The notes beneath the pieces are model-generated. The model did not search any database. It had not been told where the DNA came from and worked only from the letters and a program-made list of their open reading frames with translations. A stretch of DNA of 64,000 nucleotides from a virus: the IMG/VR virus record IMGVR_UViG_3300013132_002633, positions 1 through 64,000 of that record. One strand, 5' to 3'. A program made the position numbers and the translations under genes. Positions 21,455 through 30,215 of the stretch are shown here, piece after piece (the stretch's first letter is position 1; every line of letters begins with the position of its first letter).

Positions 21455-21748
21455 ATGGCAAAAAAATCTACAGTTTCAAAAGAATCTACACAACGAGATG
21501 AATTAATTGAGTTGTTGGCAAGTGAGCTTAATAAAGCAAATAAAGAAGGTGGCAAGATTGCATACTTTTTAGATGAACAAGAAAATCCAGCAGAAATTAG
21601 TGATTGGATTAGCACAGGATCATCTATATTGGATTTAGCAATCAGTAACCGTCCGCACGGTGGTCTTCCAGTTGGCAAGATGGTTGAATTCAACGGATTG
21701 GAAGGATGCGTAACCGAAGACACTATAATAAAAGTTATTATTGAATAA
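21455..21748 (+). CDS. uvsX: UvsX/RecA part 1: N-extein (84 aa) + 13-aa N-intein
   Basis: WISTGSSILDLAIS...GGLPVGKMVEFNGLEG then CVTEDTIIKVIIE-stop. Confidence 0.85.
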   Translation: MAKKSTVSKESTQRDELIELLASELNKANKEGGKIAYFLDEQENPAEISDWISTGSSILDLAISNRPHGGLPVGKMVEFNGLEGCVTEDTIIKVIIE

Positions 21749-22203
21749 AAATCTCCAATCCAACTATTAAAAGAAAAAAATCTGATGATAGATTTAGAAA
21801 ATTTGGAAAAATTAAAAAGAAATTTATGAATAGAATAGTAAAAGAAATAAAAGTTGGTGATGTTTTATCTCTCTTAGCAGAAGGTAAAAATATTAAAGTA
21901 TTGACTCGTAACAACGAGTATGTAAACATTACAAATTATGTAGATAAAGGATTATTAGATACATTTAAAGTTACATTAGATAATGGATTTACAATAAAGG
22001 TCTCTAGAGAACATAAATTTTTTACAAATGTTGGTTGGGTAGAACAGAGAAATTTAATTAAAGAAAATCACAAAATCTTTTGTGAAGATGGTGAATATCG
22101 TACAATACAAGATATAGAATATATTGGAAAACACAAAATTGTAGATATCACCGTTGATTCAGATGATCATTCGTATTTTGGAAATGGTATGCTTAATCAT
22201 AAT
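21707..22203 (+). mobile_element. Split intein UvsX-1 in Walker A (IntN 21707-21745, 13 aa; IntC 21826-22203, 126 aa)
   Basis: Cys1; block B VSREHKF; block F IVDITV; end YFGNGMLNHN|T; splicing restores GLEGTGKS. Confidence 0.8.
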
Positions 22204-22689
22204 ACAGGAAAATCATTGGTATCTGCACATGTTGTTGCTGATACTCAAAGAAAAGGTGGAGTTGCAGTTGTCATTGATACTGAAAACGCAGCTGCTCCTG
22301 AGTTCTGGAAAAGTTTGGGTGTAGATCTATCTAAGTTACTGTATGTTCAATGTGAAACCGTTGAAGATATTTTTGCTCAGATGGAAAAGATGATCGCAAT
22401 TGTTCGTAAGAGCAACAAAGATCGCATTCTTACAATCATTGTTGATTCTGTAGCAGCAGCATCAACTAAGGCAGAACTAGAAAGTGATCATGGTAAAGAT
22501 GGTTATGCAACTGGTAAGAGTATTATTATCAGCAAGGCGATGCGTAAGATTACTACCATGATTGGTCGTCAAAAGGTTCTTACTGTGTTTACCAATCAAC
22601 TTCGTCAAAATATAAATGCTATGGCATTTGGTGATAAATATTGTGTTGATCCGTATACAACAAAAATAAAAATTAGATATAAAATTTAA
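21826..22689 (+). CDS. uvsX: UvsX/RecA part 2: C-intein 1 + middle extein (146 aa) + 15-aa N-intein 2
   Basis: HN|TGKS, IDTENA, IIVDSVAA, FTNQLR, AFGDKY|CVDPYTTKIKIRYKI-stop. Confidence 0.9.
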   Translation: MNRIVKEIKVGDVLSLLAEGKNIKVLTRNNEYVNITNYVDKGLLDTFKVTLDNGFTIKVSREHKFFTNVGWVEQRNLIKENHKIFCEDGEYRTIQDIEYIGKHKIVDITVDSDDHSYFGNGMLNHNTGKSLVSAHVVADTQRKGGVAVVIDTENAAAPEFWKSLGVDLSKLLYVQCETVEDIFAQMEKMIAIVRKSNKDRILTIIVDSVAAASTKAELESDHGKDGYATGKSIIISKAMRKITTMIGRQKVLTVFTNQLRQNINAMAFGDKYCVDPYTTKIKIRYKI

Positions 22690-22697
22690 TTTTTCCT

Positions 22698-22741
22698 CCT
22701 CCTACTATACACTTATACTTAAATAAGTCCTTAGTAGGAGG
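22698..22741 (+). promoter_or_regulatory. RBS-sequestering hairpin upstream of endonuclease gene
   Basis: CCTCCTACTA/TAGTAGGAGG 10-bp stem plus inner ACTTAT/ATAAGT; AGGAGG ends 4 nt before ATG 22746. Confidence 0.8.
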
Positions 22742-22745
22742 TAAT

Positions 22746-23783
22746 ATGATTTTACTAGAATATTTAGATATAAATTTAACGTGGAAGAAAAATAAACCAA
22801 TTTTTAAATTTATAATTAAAACGGAAAAAAGAAAAACTAAAGAATTTCCTCTTAAATGTATTGTAAATAACAAAAGAATATCTAAAACAGGCAAAGAATA
22901 TTATATACATTATTTGGGAGAAATTGGAGAAGAAGTATATAACGAGAGAAAAAAGTTATATAGCATGTACAGTCTTATACCATTTTATATTAAAACGTAT
23001 AATAAAGATGTTGAGAAATTGAACGAATATCTTAAAATATTGAAAAGTAATAATGTGAACGGCATTAAAAAATTTTATTTGTCCGAAAAGGGAGCTGAAG
23101 CTAGAAAAATACAATCGGAATGGGGAATTAAACATTCAATGGAAATCTCATCTAGAAATAGAAAATTATGGAAAGAAGATGAGTATGTTAACAAAGTCAA
23201 ATCAAATCAAGATTATTCTTATGAAAATCATGGGAAGAAAATTTCCGATTTCTATAAAAATCAAAAAAATAAAGATTTCATAAAAAGTGTCATGAACTCC
23301 CCGAAGAGAATCGAAAAAATATCGTTATCATCTAAAAAAATGTGGGAACATGCAAAATCATTTAATAAAGAGATGTATTATAGAATGATAAATTCGCAAA
23401 AACATAAAAATTTTGAATTAAATGGATATAAACTTAATAATATCGAATATTTGGTAGGTAGTATATTAAACAATTTTTCTATAAATTGGGAATACGAAAA
23501 AATTTTTCAGTTTAAAACAACTTGTTATTTGCCCGATTTTTATGTAAGATCTAAAAATCTAATCATAGAATGTTATGGTGATTATTGGCACGCCAATCCT
23601 AAATATTTAAACGAAAACGATTTTACACATAAAAATAGATCTGTGAAAGATGTATGGGCATACGACTCTAGAAAAAAAGAAATTTTTGAAAACAATGAAT
23701 TTTCTTACTTATTTTTCTGGGAAAATGATATTCTAAATAACATAGATGGTATAAAAAAAACAATATATGAATACACAAGATAA
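22746..23783 (+). CDS. Vsr-like (DUF559-type) homing endonuclease
   Basis: PDFY...IIECYGDYWHANP...FFWENDI; between intein halves. Confidence 0.8.
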   Translation: MILLEYLDINLTWKKNKPIFKFIIKTEKRKTKEFPLKCIVNNKRISKTGKEYYIHYLGEIGEEVYNERKKLYSMYSLIPFYIKTYNKDVEKLNEYLKILKSNNVNGIKKFYLSEKGAEARKIQSEWGIKHSMEISSRNRKLWKEDEYVNKVKSNQDYSYENHGKKISDFYKNQKNKDFIKSVMNSPKRIEKISLSSKKMWEHAKSFNKEMYYRMINSQKHKNFELNGYKLNNIEYLVGSILNNFSINWEYEKIFQFKTTCYLPDFYVRSKNLIIECYGDYWHANPKYLNENDFTHKNRSVKDVWAYDSRKKEIFENNEFSYLFFWENDILNNIDGIKKTIYEYTR

Positions 23784-24609
23784 ATACATAGAAGAAGAAT
23801 TAACAATTGCCGAGTTTGCGGAAAGATTTTTAGGAATGAATAATTATTCATCTGAAAACGTTGAAGAAATAGATATATCGGATATGGATATAGAAATATA
23901 TGGTCGAGATTTAAAGTCCTCACAGGATTGCTATAATAAAATTAATAAATTTATAATCAAAACTCCATCGGAATATCATTACAGTGATGGTATACTGAAA
24001 GGCACAGATTTACATCGAATTATTGAAGATGGAGTTGAAATTCACTTGAAAGATCACAACGATTTCAAAAGGGTTAATGAACCAATAAAAGTTGTAGATT
24101 TCGATATTGAAAATACACACAATTATTATGCCAATGGTCGATTAAATCATAATACCGTAAGCGGTGGCAAGGCTTTGGCTTATCACTGTAGTGTTCGTGT
24201 TCGTTTGAACAACACTGGTAAGTTGAAAAAGGCAGAAGAAGTTATTGGCAACGAGTGTAAAGCAGTTGTTATCAAAAACAGAATGGGTCCGCCACAACGT
24301 CAAGCTAACTTTGAAATCTACTTTGACAGCGGTATTGCTGACTATAGTAGTTGGATCAAAGTATTGAAGGAGAATAACATTATCAAACAAGGTGGTGCGT
24401 ATTACTCTTACAGAAAAGAAGACGGTAGTGAATGGAAGTTCCAATCCAAAGACTTTGTATCTACCATGCAATCTGACAAGGTTTTAAAAGAAGAATTATA
24501 TCTTAAGATCTGTGATGCGGTTGTTATGAAATACAAAGATCCTAACAGTCAAATCGTTGAGGATGCTACTGTTGATACTGATGAAGAAACTGCTGGAAAC
24601 GACGAATAA
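23767..24609 (+). CDS. uvsX: UvsX/RecA part 3: C-intein 2 + C-extein (151 aa)
   Basis: HN|TVSGGKALAYHCSVRVRL...VIKNRMGPP...IKQGGAYY. Confidence 0.9.
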   Translation: MNTQDKYIEEELTIAEFAERFLGMNNYSSENVEEIDISDMDIEIYGRDLKSSQDCYNKINKFIIKTPSEYHYSDGILKGTDLHRIIEDGVEIHLKDHNDFKRVNEPIKVVDFDIENTHNYYANGRLNHNTVSGGKALAYHCSVRVRLNNTGKLKKAEEVIGNECKAVVIKNRMGPPQRQANFEIYFDSGIADYSSWIKVLKENNIIKQGGAYYSYRKEDGSEWKFQSKDFVSTMQSDKVLKEELYLKICDAVVMKYKDPNSQIVEDATVDTDEETAGNDE

Positions 24610-25682
24610 TGAATGAGTTAACACCAATCGAACGAAAGAAATTGTTCTCAATGTTCGAGAATATAGAAAGAGATTCCGTCATAACAGGACTTAAAAAATC
24701 GCTAAATAGTGATGTTCTGTTGGTTGACGGATTGTAGTTAAATACCTATATTCGTAGTTTCATGGCGATACCATCTTTAAATGACGATGGACTTCACACG
24801 GGTGGTATCGCCGGTTTTCTTAAAAGTGTAGGATACGCAATAAAATTATTGAGTCCTACCAGAGTTATAATTGTATTTGACGGAAAAGGTGGGTCTCAAA
24901 AAAGAAGAAAGATTTATCCAGACTACAAAAATGGACGTAGAACTGATATTAAATTAAACAGATCATATGATGATCTATCAAATTCGGTTATTGAAAAAGC
25001 CAATTTCAAAAAAGAATTGATACGTACTGTAAATTACCTCGACGTGTTGCCTGTTACTGTAATGGCTATTGATAATATCGAAGCAGATGATACGATTGCA
25101 TATCTAGCTAAACAAACATTCAAAGACAGTAAGGTTACAATTATGTCTACGGACAAAGATTTTTTACAGTTAGCGAGTGATCAAATAAATATTTGGAGTC
25201 CTGTAAAGAAAAAAATATTTGGTTGTAAAGAAATTATTGATGAATATGGAATAACATGTAAAAACTTCATATTTTACAGAATAATGGAAGGAGACGTAAG
25301 CGATAATATTACAGGTTTGGATGGCGTGGGATTAAAACGTGTTACACAAGCATTTCCTTTTTTGGGTGAAGATCCACAGGCGTGTTTACAACAAATATAT
25401 AATTATAGTGAAAATAATCGTAGCAGATATAAGATTTACGAGCGAGTATTAGACAATAAATTATTATTGGAACGTAATTATGAACTCATGCAATTACATA
25501 ATACACAAATTCAATCCTTTACTCAATTGAGAATTGAAGAGATTATAAATAAACCAGTTCCAAAAATTGATAAAATGAGTTTTAGTAAACTGATTACAGA
25601 AGATAAAATGTGGTCAAATATACCTAATTACATGTACTGGTTAAATGAGTGTTTTGGAAAATTAAATTCATTTGTTGAATAA
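24609..25682 (+). CDS. 5'-3' exonuclease / flap endonuclease (T4 RNase H-like) with in-frame TAG at 24735-24737
   Basis: ATG 24609 (TAATG overlap) in frame: VLLVDGL*LNTYIRSF; later VFDG, YKNGR, EADD, STDKDFLQL, GDVSDNITG. Confidence 0.85.
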
Positions 25683-25793: not shown

Positions 25794-26612
25794 ATGACTG
25801 AAAAAATTATAATAGATTCACTTCGTAAGTATGGATTGGACTTTCAAATAAAGTGCATAACGTGTCTGTTATCAGATCGTAGCTTTATGGAGAGAATTCA
25901 AGATATTGTTGAGGCTGAATTTTTTGAAAGTGATGCACAAAAATGGATTCTTAAAGAAAGTGTAAAATATTTTAATGAATATAAAGATCTTCCAACACTA
26001 ACTGTATTCAAGGTTAAAGTAGATACTGTTGAAAACGAGGTTCTTAAAAAATCTATTATAGATAGCCTAAAATTGGTTTATCAAAAGTTAAATGATAACG
26101 ATTTGAAATTTGTTAAAGAACAATTTTTGGAATTTTGTAAGAACCAAAAATTAAAGAATGCTATATTTGAAAGTGCTGATTTATTGGAAACAGGTCAATA
26201 TGACAAAATAAAGATGGTGGTTGATACCGCCATGAAAGCTGGTATGGAAAGAAATATTGGTCATGAATACGATGTAGAAATCGAAAAGCGTATGAGTATC
26301 ATGGCTCGTAACACAATAAAAACCAACTGGACTGAAATCGATACTATCATGGACGGTGGTCTTGGGCCAGGTGAACTTGGAATTGTTGTTGCGCCAGCAG
26401 GAATTGGCAAATGTATTGGTCCAAATACCGAAATTGAGATCGAATATCACGAATTTGGTATTGAAACATTATCAAGTTGCGGAAAATCATTTATAATGTG
26501 GATTAATCCGTTTGAAAAATATAAAATAGACGATGTTGAATTACTAGGTTGGCAAGTTGAAAATGTTTTTTATGAAATTGAAAAAATAAAACAAGAAAAA
26601 ACTAAAAATTAA
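25794..26612 (+). CDS. dnaB: gp41/DnaB helicase part 1: N-extein (206 aa) + 66-aa N-intein
   Basis: GGLGPGELGIVVAPAGIGK|CIGPNTEIEIEY. Confidence 0.88.
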   Translation: MTEKIIIDSLRKYGLDFQIKCITCLLSDRSFMERIQDIVEAEFFESDAQKWILKESVKYFNEYKDLPTLTVFKVKVDTVENEVLKKSIIDSLKLVYQKLNDNDLKFVKEQFLEFCKNQKLKNAIFESADLLETGQYDKIKMVVDTAMKAGMERNIGHEYDVEIEKRMSIMARNTIKTNWTEIDTIMDGGLGPGELGIVVAPAGIGKCIGPNTEIEIEYHEFGIETLSSCGKSFIMWINPFEKYKIDDVELLGWQVENVFYEIEKIKQEKTKN

Positions 26613-27798
26613 CGTTGACCGGCATCGGTAAGTATTTATAATAAATTTCATTTTTATGACATATGAGATCTATTTATTGACATGAGTATTAAAAAAGAAT
26701 TTTCAATATATCGATACCAATACTGGATGCAGAAATATGGTTTGACCGAAACCGACGCTAAAAATAAAGTCACATCAATTCAAAGAGAAAATGCGTTAAA
26801 ATCATCAAAGAAGTTCACGCCAGATCGATCTTATTTAAAAAAAGAATATTGGATTAAAAAGAAAGGATATACTGAGTCAGATGCTGTCAAAAAAATATCT
26901 GAGATTCAATCGGAGTATTCAAAAAAATCCAGTAGATTCACAGGCAAAATTAGAACAATTGAGAGCAAAATTAAAATTTCAAACTCATTAAAATCTAAAA
27001 TTGCCAAGATAGGCGGTGGCAATTGGGCAAAGCATTTTGGTCAATTTAATGGCAACTCTAAAATTGAAAAAGAATTTTATTTTTATATAAAAAATAATAT
27101 AAACACAAACGTTCAGGCAAATGTTCCTATATCAAATTATATAGTTGATGTTTTACATGAAACAAAAATAGTAGAATTTTATGGCGATTTTTGGCACGCA
27201 AATCCTAAATTTTATGAATGTGATGACCTTATAAAATCGTTTAGTATCAATAAAACTGCAAATGAAATATGGATCAGTGATAATCGTAGAATTGACATAT
27301 TACAAAAAATGGGGTATGATGTATTGATAATCTGGGAAAATGATTGGAAAAAAAACAAACAAGAGTGTATAGAAAAAATAAAAAAACATTATGAAATTAT
27401 TAATTAAAAATGTCCGTGAAAATATTAAAATAAAAGATTTATTTGATAGATTAAAAATTAAAGATGAAGAAAATGCGATGGAACAGTTAAAATTTCCATT
27501 AAAAGTAAATACACCATTTGGTTATAAAAAAATTGTGACAGCGTTTCGTACTGAAAAACAAAAAACAATAACTTCTTATTTTGGTAACAATAAAACATTA
27601 AAGACTTCTGGAAAACATAGATTAAAAGTAAACGGGAGTTGGAAATTCGTAGATGAAATAAACTCTGGAGAGCTAGTAGAAACTGAAGTTGGTACCACAA
27701 AATTAGTATCAAAAAAAGAAGGTCGAGACGAGATATTATATGATATATCGGTTGATGAAGTGCATTGTTATTATAGCAATGGCATTCTTTCCCATAAT
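26412..27798 (+). mobile_element. Split intein helicase-1 at Walker A (IntN 26412-26609; IntC 27391-27798, 136 aa)
   Basis: Cys1; TSGKHRL; LYDISV; YYSNGILSHN|S; splicing restores GIGKSW. Confidence 0.88.
26682..27407 (+). CDS. Vsr-like homing endonuclease
   Basis: VD...IVEFYGDFWHANP...IIWENDW. Confidence 0.8.
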   Translation: MSIKKEFSIYRYQYWMQKYGLTETDAKNKVTSIQRENALKSSKKFTPDRSYLKKEYWIKKKGYTESDAVKKISEIQSEYSKKSSRFTGKIRTIESKIKISNSLKSKIAKIGGGNWAKHFGQFNGNSKIEKEFYFYIKNNINTNVQANVPISNYIVDVLHETKIVEFYGDFWHANPKFYECDDLIKSFSINKTANEIWISDNRRIDILQKMGYDVLIIWENDWKKNKQECIEKIKKHYEIIN

Positions 27799-28503
27799 TC
27801 ATGGGTACTTGCCAAGTTGGGAGCTGAAGCAATGAAACAAGGTAAAAATGTTCTTCACTTCACACTAGAATTAAATGAAAACTATGTTGGATTACGATAT
27901 GATAGTTGTTTTACTGGAATTGATTTCCAAAATATCAGAAACAACATTGACATTGTAAAACAAAAGATTTCAGAAGTGCCTGGTAAACTTGTTATCAAGT
28001 ATTTTCCATTGAAGACGGTATCAGCTCATAGCTTAAAATCTCATACTGAAAGATTGGCTGTATTGGGTACAAAAATTGACATGATCGTTGTAGATTATGC
28101 AGATATTCTTCGTCCAGTACACAGTGATCGTAATAGCAACAGTTATAGTGAGGCTGGTGGTATTTACGAAGAGCTAAGAAGTATCGCGGGTGAACTTCAA
28201 ATTCCAATTTGGAGTGCAAGTCAAGCGAATAGGTGTCATTTGGTTGATGATCAAGTACTTACAAATCGAGGAACGATTAGACTAGGAGATTTGACTATTA
28301 ACGATTTGGTTTTGACTCACAAAGGACTTAAAAAAGTAACAAAAATTTTTCCAACCGAAACGCAGCCTGTTTATAAAATTAAATTAAGATCTGGTAAAGA
28401 GATTAATATATCTGCAAATCATAGAGTTCCAACCGCCGACGGCAGATTAAAATCATTAGAAACTGGGTTGTCTGTAGGCGACAAGTTATTTACAAAAAAA
28501 TAA
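27391..28503 (+). CDS. dnaB: Helicase part 2: C-intein 1 + middle extein (145 aa) + 89-aa N-intein 2
   Basis: HN|SWVL, HFTLEL, IVVDYADIL, WSASQANR|CHLVDDQV...SANHRV. Confidence 0.9.
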   Translation: MKLLIKNVRENIKIKDLFDRLKIKDEENAMEQLKFPLKVNTPFGYKKIVTAFRTEKQKTITSYFGNNKTLKTSGKHRLKVNGSWKFVDEINSGELVETEVGTTKLVSKKEGRDEILYDISVDEVHCYYSNGILSHNSWVLAKLGAEAMKQGKNVLHFTLELNENYVGLRYDSCFTGIDFQNIRNNIDIVKQKISEVPGKLVIKYFPLKTVSAHSLKSHTERLAVLGTKIDMIVVDYADILRPVHSDRNSNSYSEAGGIYEELRSIAGELQIPIWSASQANRCHLVDDQVLTNRGTIRLGDLTINDLVLTHKGLKKVTKIFPTETQPVYKIKLRSGKEINISANHRVPTADGRLKSLETGLSVGDKLFTKK

Positions 28504-29885
28504 TATTTTGTGATGCAGACCATATATTTAATATTATATGATTAACACTAAATTTAGAGATATTGTTCATTTAATGAACCAGAAGCCGTTCCGTGATTTT
28601 AAAAATGATTTAAGCGAATGCGTAATCAGTAACTTAAAAAAGGTCATATTAGAGTTTGATAAAAAATATATCTTGAATAACAAGAAAGAAGTCATACAGA
28701 ACATGATTAGATATAATGTTGATGGTGATTGGGTAGAGAGATTAAAAAATGGTGATAAATATAAAAAAGACGGATTTTCCATGGAAGCATTGATTGTGAA
28801 ATATGGCGAATCTGTTGCAAAGTTAATATCAGATGAAAGAAACGATAAAGTTGCGATTACCAAGGATAAATATATACGAAACCATAGTGAACATGAATGG
28901 GAAGAATTATGTAAAAAAAAGAGAAGTAATTTAGGACTTGATGGTTATATTAAAAAATATGGACATGAAGAAGGTTTAAAAAAATGGAACAATTACTTAA
29001 AAAAATGGAAAATTGGCATTGAAAAGAAAAAAGCTGATGGTTGGAAAAATGGTTTAACGATTGAGGAATATCAAACTAGATATGGAATAAAAGAAGGATA
29101 TGAACGTTGGAGAAAAAGAATAAATAGTAGAAAATATACTCTTTCTTTAGAAGGATATATTAATAAACACGGTGGTGAGTTGGGAAAAAAGTTGTGGGGT
29201 GAATATTGTAAATCAAATAATAAAACGTCGTTGGAGTCTTTTATCAAAAGATACGGTGAGAAGTTTGGAAAAGAAAAGTACGTTTTGATGCTAGAAAAGA
29301 TCTTTTGTTATTTAAAAAACCGAAGGTGTTATAGCATAATTTCCCAAGAATTATTTAAAAATGTAGCAGATAAATTGGAAAATAAAAATGATATAAAATA
29401 TGCAATACAAAATGGAGAGCAATATTTTTTTATTAATGAAAATTTTTGTAAAGGTATGTTTGTCGATTTTAAATATGGAAACATAATTATAGAATTTTAT
29501 GGAGATTTTTGGCATGCTAATCCATCTAAATACAAAGAAAACGATATAGTAAAACTTCCTAATAACAATAAATTGGCTAATAAAGTTTGGAGTGAAGATA
29601 AAGAAAAAATTGATTGGTTGGTAAAACGAGGATACAATGTAATGATTGTATGGGAAAGTGATTATTTGAAAAATAAAAATGAAGTGGTACAGAGTTGTTT
29701 AAATTTCATAAAACAGAACTATAAATAATATGACAGAAAAAATTACAAAAGAACACGATTTAAATCCTAATGAGTTTGAGTTAGATGAAATAGTCAACAT
29801 AGAGTGTATAGGTGATCATGAAACGGTTGACATTACTGTGGATGACACGCATATGTTTTTTGCAAATGGTGTATATACACACAAT
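28234..29885 (+). mobile_element. Split intein helicase-2, canonical split (IntN 28234-28500, 89 aa; IntC 29730-29885, 52 aa)
   Basis: Cys1, block B ISANHR; TVDITV; FFANGVYTHN|S. Confidence 0.9.
28538..29728 (+). CDS. Vsr-like homing endonuclease with N-terminal (K/R)YG-E-G repeats
   Basis: Repeated YIxKYGxEEGxKKW; VDF...IIEFYGDFWHANP...VWESD. Confidence 0.8.
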   Translation: MINTKFRDIVHLMNQKPFRDFKNDLSECVISNLKKVILEFDKKYILNNKKEVIQNMIRYNVDGDWVERLKNGDKYKKDGFSMEALIVKYGESVAKLISDERNDKVAITKDKYIRNHSEHEWEELCKKKRSNLGLDGYIKKYGHEEGLKKWNNYLKKWKIGIEKKKADGWKNGLTIEEYQTRYGIKEGYERWRKRINSRKYTLSLEGYINKHGGELGKKLWGEYCKSNNKTSLESFIKRYGEKFGKEKYVLMLEKIFCYLKNRRCYSIISQELFKNVADKLENKNDIKYAIQNGEQYFFINENFCKGMFVDFKYGNIIIEFYGDFWHANPSKYKENDIVKLPNNNKLANKVWSEDKEKIDWLVKRGYNVMIVWESDYLKNKNEVVQSCLNFIKQNYK

Positions 29886-30215
29886 TCAGCAGCAGACGAA
29901 GACATTGTTATGGCACATCACGCTGCCGACAGTTATCGTAAAATCATGACTGCCGATTTCGTAATGAGTGTGTCTCGCAAGACAAACGATAAAGTAAGTA
30001 ATACAGCACGATTCCACATTATTAAAAATCGTTTCGGACCAGATGGTTTGACATTCCCAAGCAAAATGAATGCTGGCTGTGGTCAGATTGAGATTTATGG
30101 TGAAAACAGTCGTGAAGGTCTGGCTGTGTTGAATGAAATGATGGACGGTGAGAACAATGTGAAAAAAGTCTTAAAAAATAAATGGAACGCACATAATGCT
30201 AATGACGATGAATAA
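29730..30215 (+). CDS. dnaB: Helicase part 3: C-intein 2 + C-extein (109 aa)
   Basis: HN|SAADED...ADSYRKIMTADFV...IIKNRFG. Confidence 0.9.
   Translation: MTEKITKEHDLNPNEFELDEIVNIECIGDHETVDITVDDTHMFFANGVYTHNSAADEDIVMAHHAADSYRKIMTADFVMSVSRKTNDKVSNTARFHIIKNRFGPDGLTFPSKMNAGCGQIEIYGENSREGLAVLNEMMDGENNVKKVLKNKWNAHNANDDE

Follow-up and report, generated by a model that had tools for sequence, protein, structure and literature searches.

A stop codon between matched leucine codons recurs in the catalytic motif of a phage 5'-3' exonuclease gene and may be hopped by ribosomes

Results

The window analyzed in this study is a stretch of 64,000 nt of lake phage DNA from IMG/VR virus record IMGVR_UViG_3300013132_002633. 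A 5'-3' exonuclease gene spans 24,609-25,682 on the plus strand, and its ATG overlaps the stop codon of the upstream recA-like gene as TAATG. At 24,729-24,743 the sequence reads GGA TTG TAG TTA AAT in the frame of ATG 24,609, and the translation around the in-frame stop is VDG-TTG-TAG-TTA-NTYIRSF. A sequence-only reading of this DNA had reported that the frame from ATG 24,609, VLLVDG-TTG-TAG-TTA-NTYIRSF, stays in frame with the rest of the gene. This was confirmed, as the Pfam family PF02739 matched the read-through translation across the stop (residues 36-214, model positions 2-164 of 164, E = 7.4e-29). PF01367, the C-terminal helix-3-turn-helix of the SAM fold, scored 20 bits (E = 0.00095), under its 40-bit cutoff, and is a precomputed match in many close homologs.

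All parts of the gene lie on the plus strand. The 5' part (24,609-24,734) consists of 42 codons from the ATG to a Leu codon and contains the LLVDG strand with the catalytic Asp. Its last codon, TTG at 24,732-24,734, is the proposed take-off codon. The stop TAG follows at 24,735-24,737, where it would stand in the A site at take-off, and the proposed landing codon TTA lies at 24,738-24,740. TTG and TTA belong to one decoding box, that of tRNA-Leu(UAA). The remainder of the exonuclease (24,741-25,682) has 313 codons from Asn (NTYIRSF...) and the stop codon.

Among the 120 best database homologs listed, 85 have a length of 355 aa. Uninterrupted homologs aligned as LLVDG--LNTYIRSF (VDG-L-NTYIRSF, the reading of more than 100 homologs), and therefore the window has exactly two extra codons, as had been claimed. 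An unbroken homolog was aligned with residues 13-29 of the Taq polymerase 5'-nuclease (VLLVDGHHLAYRTF) through the VLLVDG motif without gaps. This places the Asp before the stop at the first active-site carboxylate (metal-binding) position and indicates that the spacing after the Asp is conserved. The N, I, and R of LNTYIRSF were invariant in all relatives examined.

A downstream ATG at 24,762-24,764 (plus strand) is the start chosen by gene callers for a 306-aa product and could serve as an alternative restart site. Products of 314 aa and 306 aa are given by gene callers at broken loci, and among the database matches listed at least 10 proteins of 306-307 aa start at a Met past the stop. Restart at ATG 24,762 had been expected to lose the catalytic Asp. 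This holds, since the Asp lies upstream of the stop, and LNTYIRSF is lost as well. No ribosome-binding site is visible in the sequence before this ATG.

The site was read in 81 loci, 80 from IMG/VR and the window's own. The frame was intact in 51 loci, which read GGN YTN AAY. Three broken forms made up the rest. TTG TAG TTA, the in-frame +6 insert of the window, was present in 4 of the 81 loci, and another in-frame +6 form with different codons, CTC TAA CTT, in one. The most frequent form was a +5 insert reading TTG TAG TG (25/81), which leaves the downstream part out of frame. The CTC/CTT pair was found in L058 and L185. In both +6 forms the stop sits between Leu codons of one decoding box, and in the +5 form the landing triplet GUG would pair with the Leu anticodon at two of three positions. 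The sequence-only reading had pointed to related phages as the place where matched codon-stop-codon arrangements might be conserved, and the search found both the recurrence of TTG TAG TTA and the second matched pair.

An unbiased scan of IMG/VR, open to all inserts of 1-30 nt that separate GACGG from the NTYIRxFM codons, returned 40 contigs broken at the same site, with the three insert forms and no others. A scan of JGI metagenomes for inserts of at least 6 nt added two TTG TAG TTA contigs and one independent CTC TAA CTT contig; no insert of 6 nt or longer beyond the two known +6 forms was found there. The stop was TAG or TAA in all 43 broken contigs (40 IMG/VR and 3 JGI). The 42-codon 5' part was intact in 28/28 distinct broken alleles, none of which had a second lesion, and the 313-codon 3' part was intact in all broken alleles except those cut by a contig end. 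It had been argued earlier that an in-frame 6-nt insertion is not a typical indel error and that the rest of the gene shows no decay. One outcome named there as refuting the hop, complete absence of the insert from homologs, did not occur. An assembly error is ruled out by 43 contigs that carry this insert or a variant of it at one site, and the break is both real and recurrent.

No cultured phage with a broken allele was found, and the closest cultured relatives were unbroken. Bacillus phage SPO1 (L187, 109,058-109,990) was considered as a cultured broken case because a tblastn match spanned two annotated genes. It was rejected, since the upstream gp32.8 is unrelated and the exonuclease is whole with a normal start (MHMLIDGNN). 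Nothing in the window's other pairs of neighboring same-frame ORFs pointed to additional stop-hops.

A hairpin in the mRNA is predicted at 24,675-24,731 (plus strand). Its outer and middle helix pairs 24,675-24,690 with 24,714-24,731 and its inner stem pairs 24,698-24,703 with 24,708-24,713. The last paired base of the 3' arm directly precedes the take-off codon. The fold in the window had a free energy of -23.7 kcal/mol (z = -5.06), and none of 200 shuffled sequences was as stable. Eight broken alleles were analyzed with RNAalifold and pair counts. The 15-bp main helix was 100% paired in all eight and in all three forms, with compensatory or wobble changes at three pairs (UA/UG/GC, GU/AU/GC, and CG/AU/GU). 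Pairing was 96% in the hairpin compared with 30-54% when the partners were slid, and the covariation score was 0.221 compared with 0.127 for shuffles (0/500 reached it). This covariation rests on few events, given three independent forms in all and +5 alleles that hardly differ from one another.

Unbroken alleles (n = 30) could form only 7-14 of the 21 pairs, and the same fold had near-zero to positive energies in them (-3.2 to +24.8 kcal/mol). In the IMG/VR scan no exonuclease allele carried the outer arms at the same spacing beside an unbroken site. The hairpin and the insert are thus strictly associated. The unbroken allele of L033 (2,755-2,990) has a 5' end like that of the +5 form and near-site sequence like that of unbroken alleles, and its hairpin is degenerate (14/21 pairs, -4.4 kcal/mol). 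L033 is either a recombinant or a revertant.

In a tree of the 5' parts, all broken alleles together with unbroken L033 formed one clade with support of 1.0. The tree of the 3' parts was incongruent with it, with broken alleles scattered among unbroken ones on at least six backbones. A protein tree built for the subclade of the window had 306-aa and 355-aa alleles interspersed, down to identical 3' parts. From these trees, the presence or absence of the broken 5' segment is a shallow polymorphism spread over many backbones. Unbroken alleles share the mosaic 3' parts, and conservation of a 3' part is therefore no evidence of function after insertion.

The 5' part is informative in this respect. 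Between the forms its dS was about 1 and its omega 0.1-0.3. Codons 1-22, all outside the hairpin, had a pS of 0.44-0.83 compared with a pN of 0.09-0.26 (Fisher p = 0.0003-0.04, including the comparison of the window with L003). Within the +5 form the 5' parts were nearly identical (dS 0.04-0.2), and the exonuclease gene of this phage group is otherwise strongly constrained (omega about 0.05). The substitution patterns indicate that the 5' parts of the broken clade are under protein-level purifying selection as a coding unit. For the 42-aa peptide by itself, a single beta strand carrying the catalytic Asp, no role outside the enzyme is obvious. The 5' part, the insert, and the hairpin are co-inherited as a unit.

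Loci L044 (+5) and L041 (unbroken) were 100% identical in recA and again from about 135 nt beyond the site. Between these stretches lay a 963-nt insert, a 5' part of 54-66% identity, and then a gradient of 86, 92, and 96%. Similar patterns were seen in the pairs L029/L019, L031/L026, and L003/L002. The insert in L044 encodes a 310-aa Vsr-like PD-(D/E)xK nuclease (L044:1930-2862) with matches to PF18741 and to the homing-endonuclease families phrog_559 and phrog_3339. Its ORF and the beginning of the exonuclease 5' part share 14 nt in different frames (L044:2849-2862). The gene for this 310-aa endonuclease adjoins the exonuclease gene in 15 of the 25 +5 loci. These results indicate that the +5 form often moves with the Vsr-like endonuclease gene as a mobile cassette.

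In the other 10 of the 25 +5 loci, a spacer of 91-98 nt with a terminator-like inverted repeat is found in place of the endonuclease. We considered that it might be a deletion remnant and rejected this, because it is a separate spacer present also in unbroken L033. Comparison of the spacers L029:2755-2848 and L011:1976-2069 showed a 14-bp inverted repeat (TTTTCCACACAGTC...) whose loop is inverted between the two loci.

No endonuclease gene lies beside the exonuclease in the window, where recA abuts it, or in the CTC/CTT form. The window has two Vsr-like endonuclease ORFs, at 22,746-23,783 and 26,682-27,407, which are 24-25% identical to the cassette enzyme and lie inside split recA and helicase genes in a "fractured gene" layout. 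The recA/UvsX-like gene (21,455-24,609) and the DnaB-like helicase gene (25,794-30,215) are each split into several ORFs. Their pieces have intein-like ends, for example ...THNYYANGRLNHN before the RecA C-part and GIGK|C at the helicase P-loop.

Discussion

In this study, we found a stop-containing insert that recurs at one site in the catalytic motif of an exonuclease gene. We lean towards the reading that the six bases TAG TTA (equivalently TTG TAG) form a short coding gap that ribosomes hop, restoring DGLN. At take-off, peptidyl-tRNA-Leu would sit on UUG in the P site with UAG in the A site. The tRNA would unpair, the mRNA would shift by six bases, and the tRNA would re-pair on UUA, so that decoding resumes at AAU. 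The product would be the canonical ...VDGLNTYIR... enzyme, with a junction ...SDVLLVDGLNTYIR carrying a single Leu. In the CTC TAA CTT form an analogous hop would lead from CUC over the stop to CUU, and in the +5 form the landing would be on GUG.

A tRNA-Leu hop is the sole single mechanism that would yield the canonical protein in all three forms. A hop from UUG to UUA giving DGLN had been proposed from the window, and it remains the best fit to the comparative data; full codon matching does not extend to the +5 form, in which GUG matches at only two of three positions. The proposal that the element limits nuclease output found no support. The data point instead to a mobile allele linked to a homing endonuclease, though no endonuclease gene adjoins the exonuclease of the window.

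The hairpin may contribute to the hop. With UUG in the P site the helix would have about 8-15 bp left to gain, and hence its re-zipping behind the ribosome could draw the mRNA forward in the way suggested for the 5' stem-loop of T4 gene 60. For that element, a 5' stem-loop forming as the mRNA exits the ribosome was proposed to start forward movement (bioRxiv 10.1101/2024.12.09.627546). The insert may also shield the allele from cleavage by the endonuclease. We regard as evenly balanced the fuller proposal of a natural, selected hop of +6 or +5 nt guided or driven by a hairpin zipping closed as far as the take-off codon, the insert perhaps being a minimal one that protects against the endonuclease and leaves the protein unchanged. 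As synthetic stop-hops without stimulators are low-level (bioRxiv 10.1101/2024.12.09.627546), the yield here could be small.

The broken allele could instead be a selfish null, in which the insert inactivates the exonuclease and is kept by endonuclease resistance or drive while a host 5' nuclease supplies the activity. Several observations agree with this. The +5 form is out of frame and very young, no other form was seen with an endonuclease gene next to it, and in L044 it has recently invaded a genome otherwise identical to that of L041. The interspersion of broken and unbroken alleles, down to identical 3' parts, means that intact 3' parts could come from unbroken ancestors. However, a null allele does not account for protein-level purifying selection on the 5' parts over a dS of about 1, for a hairpin maintained by compensatory changes, or for an extra codon that remains a matched Leu in two codon families. 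In addition, 0/28 distinct alleles have a second lesion, and the gene is otherwise held at an omega of about 0.05 in this phage group. We consider this explanation unlikely.

We judge it improbable, too, that the enzyme is made in two pieces. Translation would stop and restart at the GTG of TAGTG or at ATG 24,762, and the 42-aa peptide would associate non-covalently with the large fragment. In TAGTG, stop and start overlap in the classic manner and a weak GGA lies five bases upstream, the 314-aa and 306-aa products are those predicted by gene callers, and RecA and the helicase of the same phage are already in pieces. Nevertheless, a start codon is missing from the junction in the window and in the CTC TAA CTT form. 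Restart at ATG 24,762 would drop LNTYIRSF with its invariant N, I, and R, and would do so without a visible ribosome-binding site. The matched Leu codons and the hairpin would be left unexplained.

Read-through or suppression of the stop, giving DGLxLN with two added residues, is very unlikely. It would suit the window, where the insert is in frame, and TAG ends just one of 51 long plus-strand ORFs in the 76.5-kb record (41 end in TAA and 9 in TGA; GC 30.9%). However, the most frequent form is not in frame and a further one has TAA as its stop, and these two forms exclude amber suppression and read-through as a general answer. An amber suppressor tRNA had been suggested as something to look for, and no tRNA gene was found in the 76.5-kb record, which is about 25% of the genome. 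No other pair of long ORFs in that record is split by TAG. The two extra residues would also alter the spacing at a place where this family aligns with Taq polymerase without gaps.

Removal of the insert at the RNA level by hairpin-guided processing or editing, or a sequencing or assembly artefact, is hardly credible: a strong predicted hairpin does end at the site, but excision of 5-6 nt from bacterial or phage mRNA has no known mechanism, and an artefact is excluded by 43 contigs with three sequence forms from many metagenome samples, as judged by sample identifiers. A -1 frameshift in the +5 form was also considered and rejected, as the only open stretch, C GGA UUG, lacks a slippery heptamer and two foreign residues would end up in the product.

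Among natural bacterial cases of translational bypassing, essentially only T4 gene 60 has been studied well. A ribosomal hop in the exonuclease gene would resemble gene 60 and its MobA endonuclease in several respects. In both, a coding gap lies within an essential replication enzyme (PMC5009743; bioRxiv 10.1101/2022.08.31.505936). Gene 60 elements have a stop after take-off, and both codons are read by one tRNA (bioRxiv 10.1101/2022.08.31.505936). Likewise, the stop here follows the take-off codon directly and is mostly UAG, and the codons for take-off and landing are either the same or served by a single tRNA (here TTG/TTA and CTC/CTT, with a 2/3 match for GTG in the +5 form). An mRNA structure lies on the take-off codon's 5' side in both, here a predicted 15-bp helix with an inner stem in broken alleles only. 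A free-standing homing endonuclease gene is associated with the gap, its ORF running out of frame into the start of the downstream ORF (by 14 nt in L044 and by 8-32 nt in MobA elements), and versions without the endonuclease persist. The endonuclease of a gene 60 element can itself be VSR-type or lost (bioRxiv 10.1101/2022.08.31.505936).

The two systems also differ. The gap is 5-6 nt here and 50 nt in T4 gene 60 (20 nt in the shortest reported clade); so short a gap leaves no room for a stem-loop at the A site or take-off codon within it, unlike in gene 60. The interrupted enzyme is a flap endonuclease rather than a topoisomerase, with no sequence homology between them. The hairpin reaches the base before the take-off codon, whereas that of gene 60 ends 9 nt upstream. 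In contrast to MobA, the endonuclease is Vsr-like, and the window's own allele lacks an adjacent endonuclease gene.

The other systems that we compared share single features with the exonuclease site. Synthetic stop-hops in E. coli used matched codons around a stop (Weiss et al. 1987, reviewed in PMC5009743), and there as here the hop product differs from the read-through product by two residues. They were engineered, had low efficiency, and lacked stimulators, whereas the exonuclease site is a natural allele family with a conserved hairpin. Natural in-frame stop-hops were not known in the 2016 review (PMC5009743), our literature search found no later report, and none of a natural stop-hop in an exonuclease gene. 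In the byps of Magnusiomyces capitatus mitochondria, short blocks in coding genes are skipped and the codon match is sometimes imperfect, as in the +5 form (PMC5009743). Byps differ in being mitochondrial, with relaxed decoding, an unused A-site codon, and sites that number in the dozens per genome, and neither a hairpin nor a link to an endonuclease has been described for them.

The descent of the +5 form resembles intronless homing by the seg and mob genes of T4 in its presence or absence in otherwise identical genomes and in the graded co-conversion of flanking markers. In seg/mob homing, resistance of the donor site usually arises by silent substitutions. The candidate immunity change at the exonuclease site is instead a stop-containing insert in a catalytic motif.

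The best reading of these comparisons is that the element may be a miniature counterpart of gene 60/MobA in operation, one that matches the laboratory stop-hop design. If so, such recoding would be a general, portable device rather than a one-off, and would be tied to the conflict of homing endonucleases with the sites that they target. A cassette of about 70 nt, with a hairpin and codon-stop-codon in three natural variants, would offer a simple natural system for tRNA unpairing and mRNA sliding. Gene finders would be expected to mis-annotate such genes as truncated or split.

A basic KK/KR motif is encoded at 24,636-24,641 of the window (codons 10-11), about 31 residues before the take-off codon. 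This distance is near that quoted for the KKYK motif of gene 60, but the motif is present in unbroken alleles as well.
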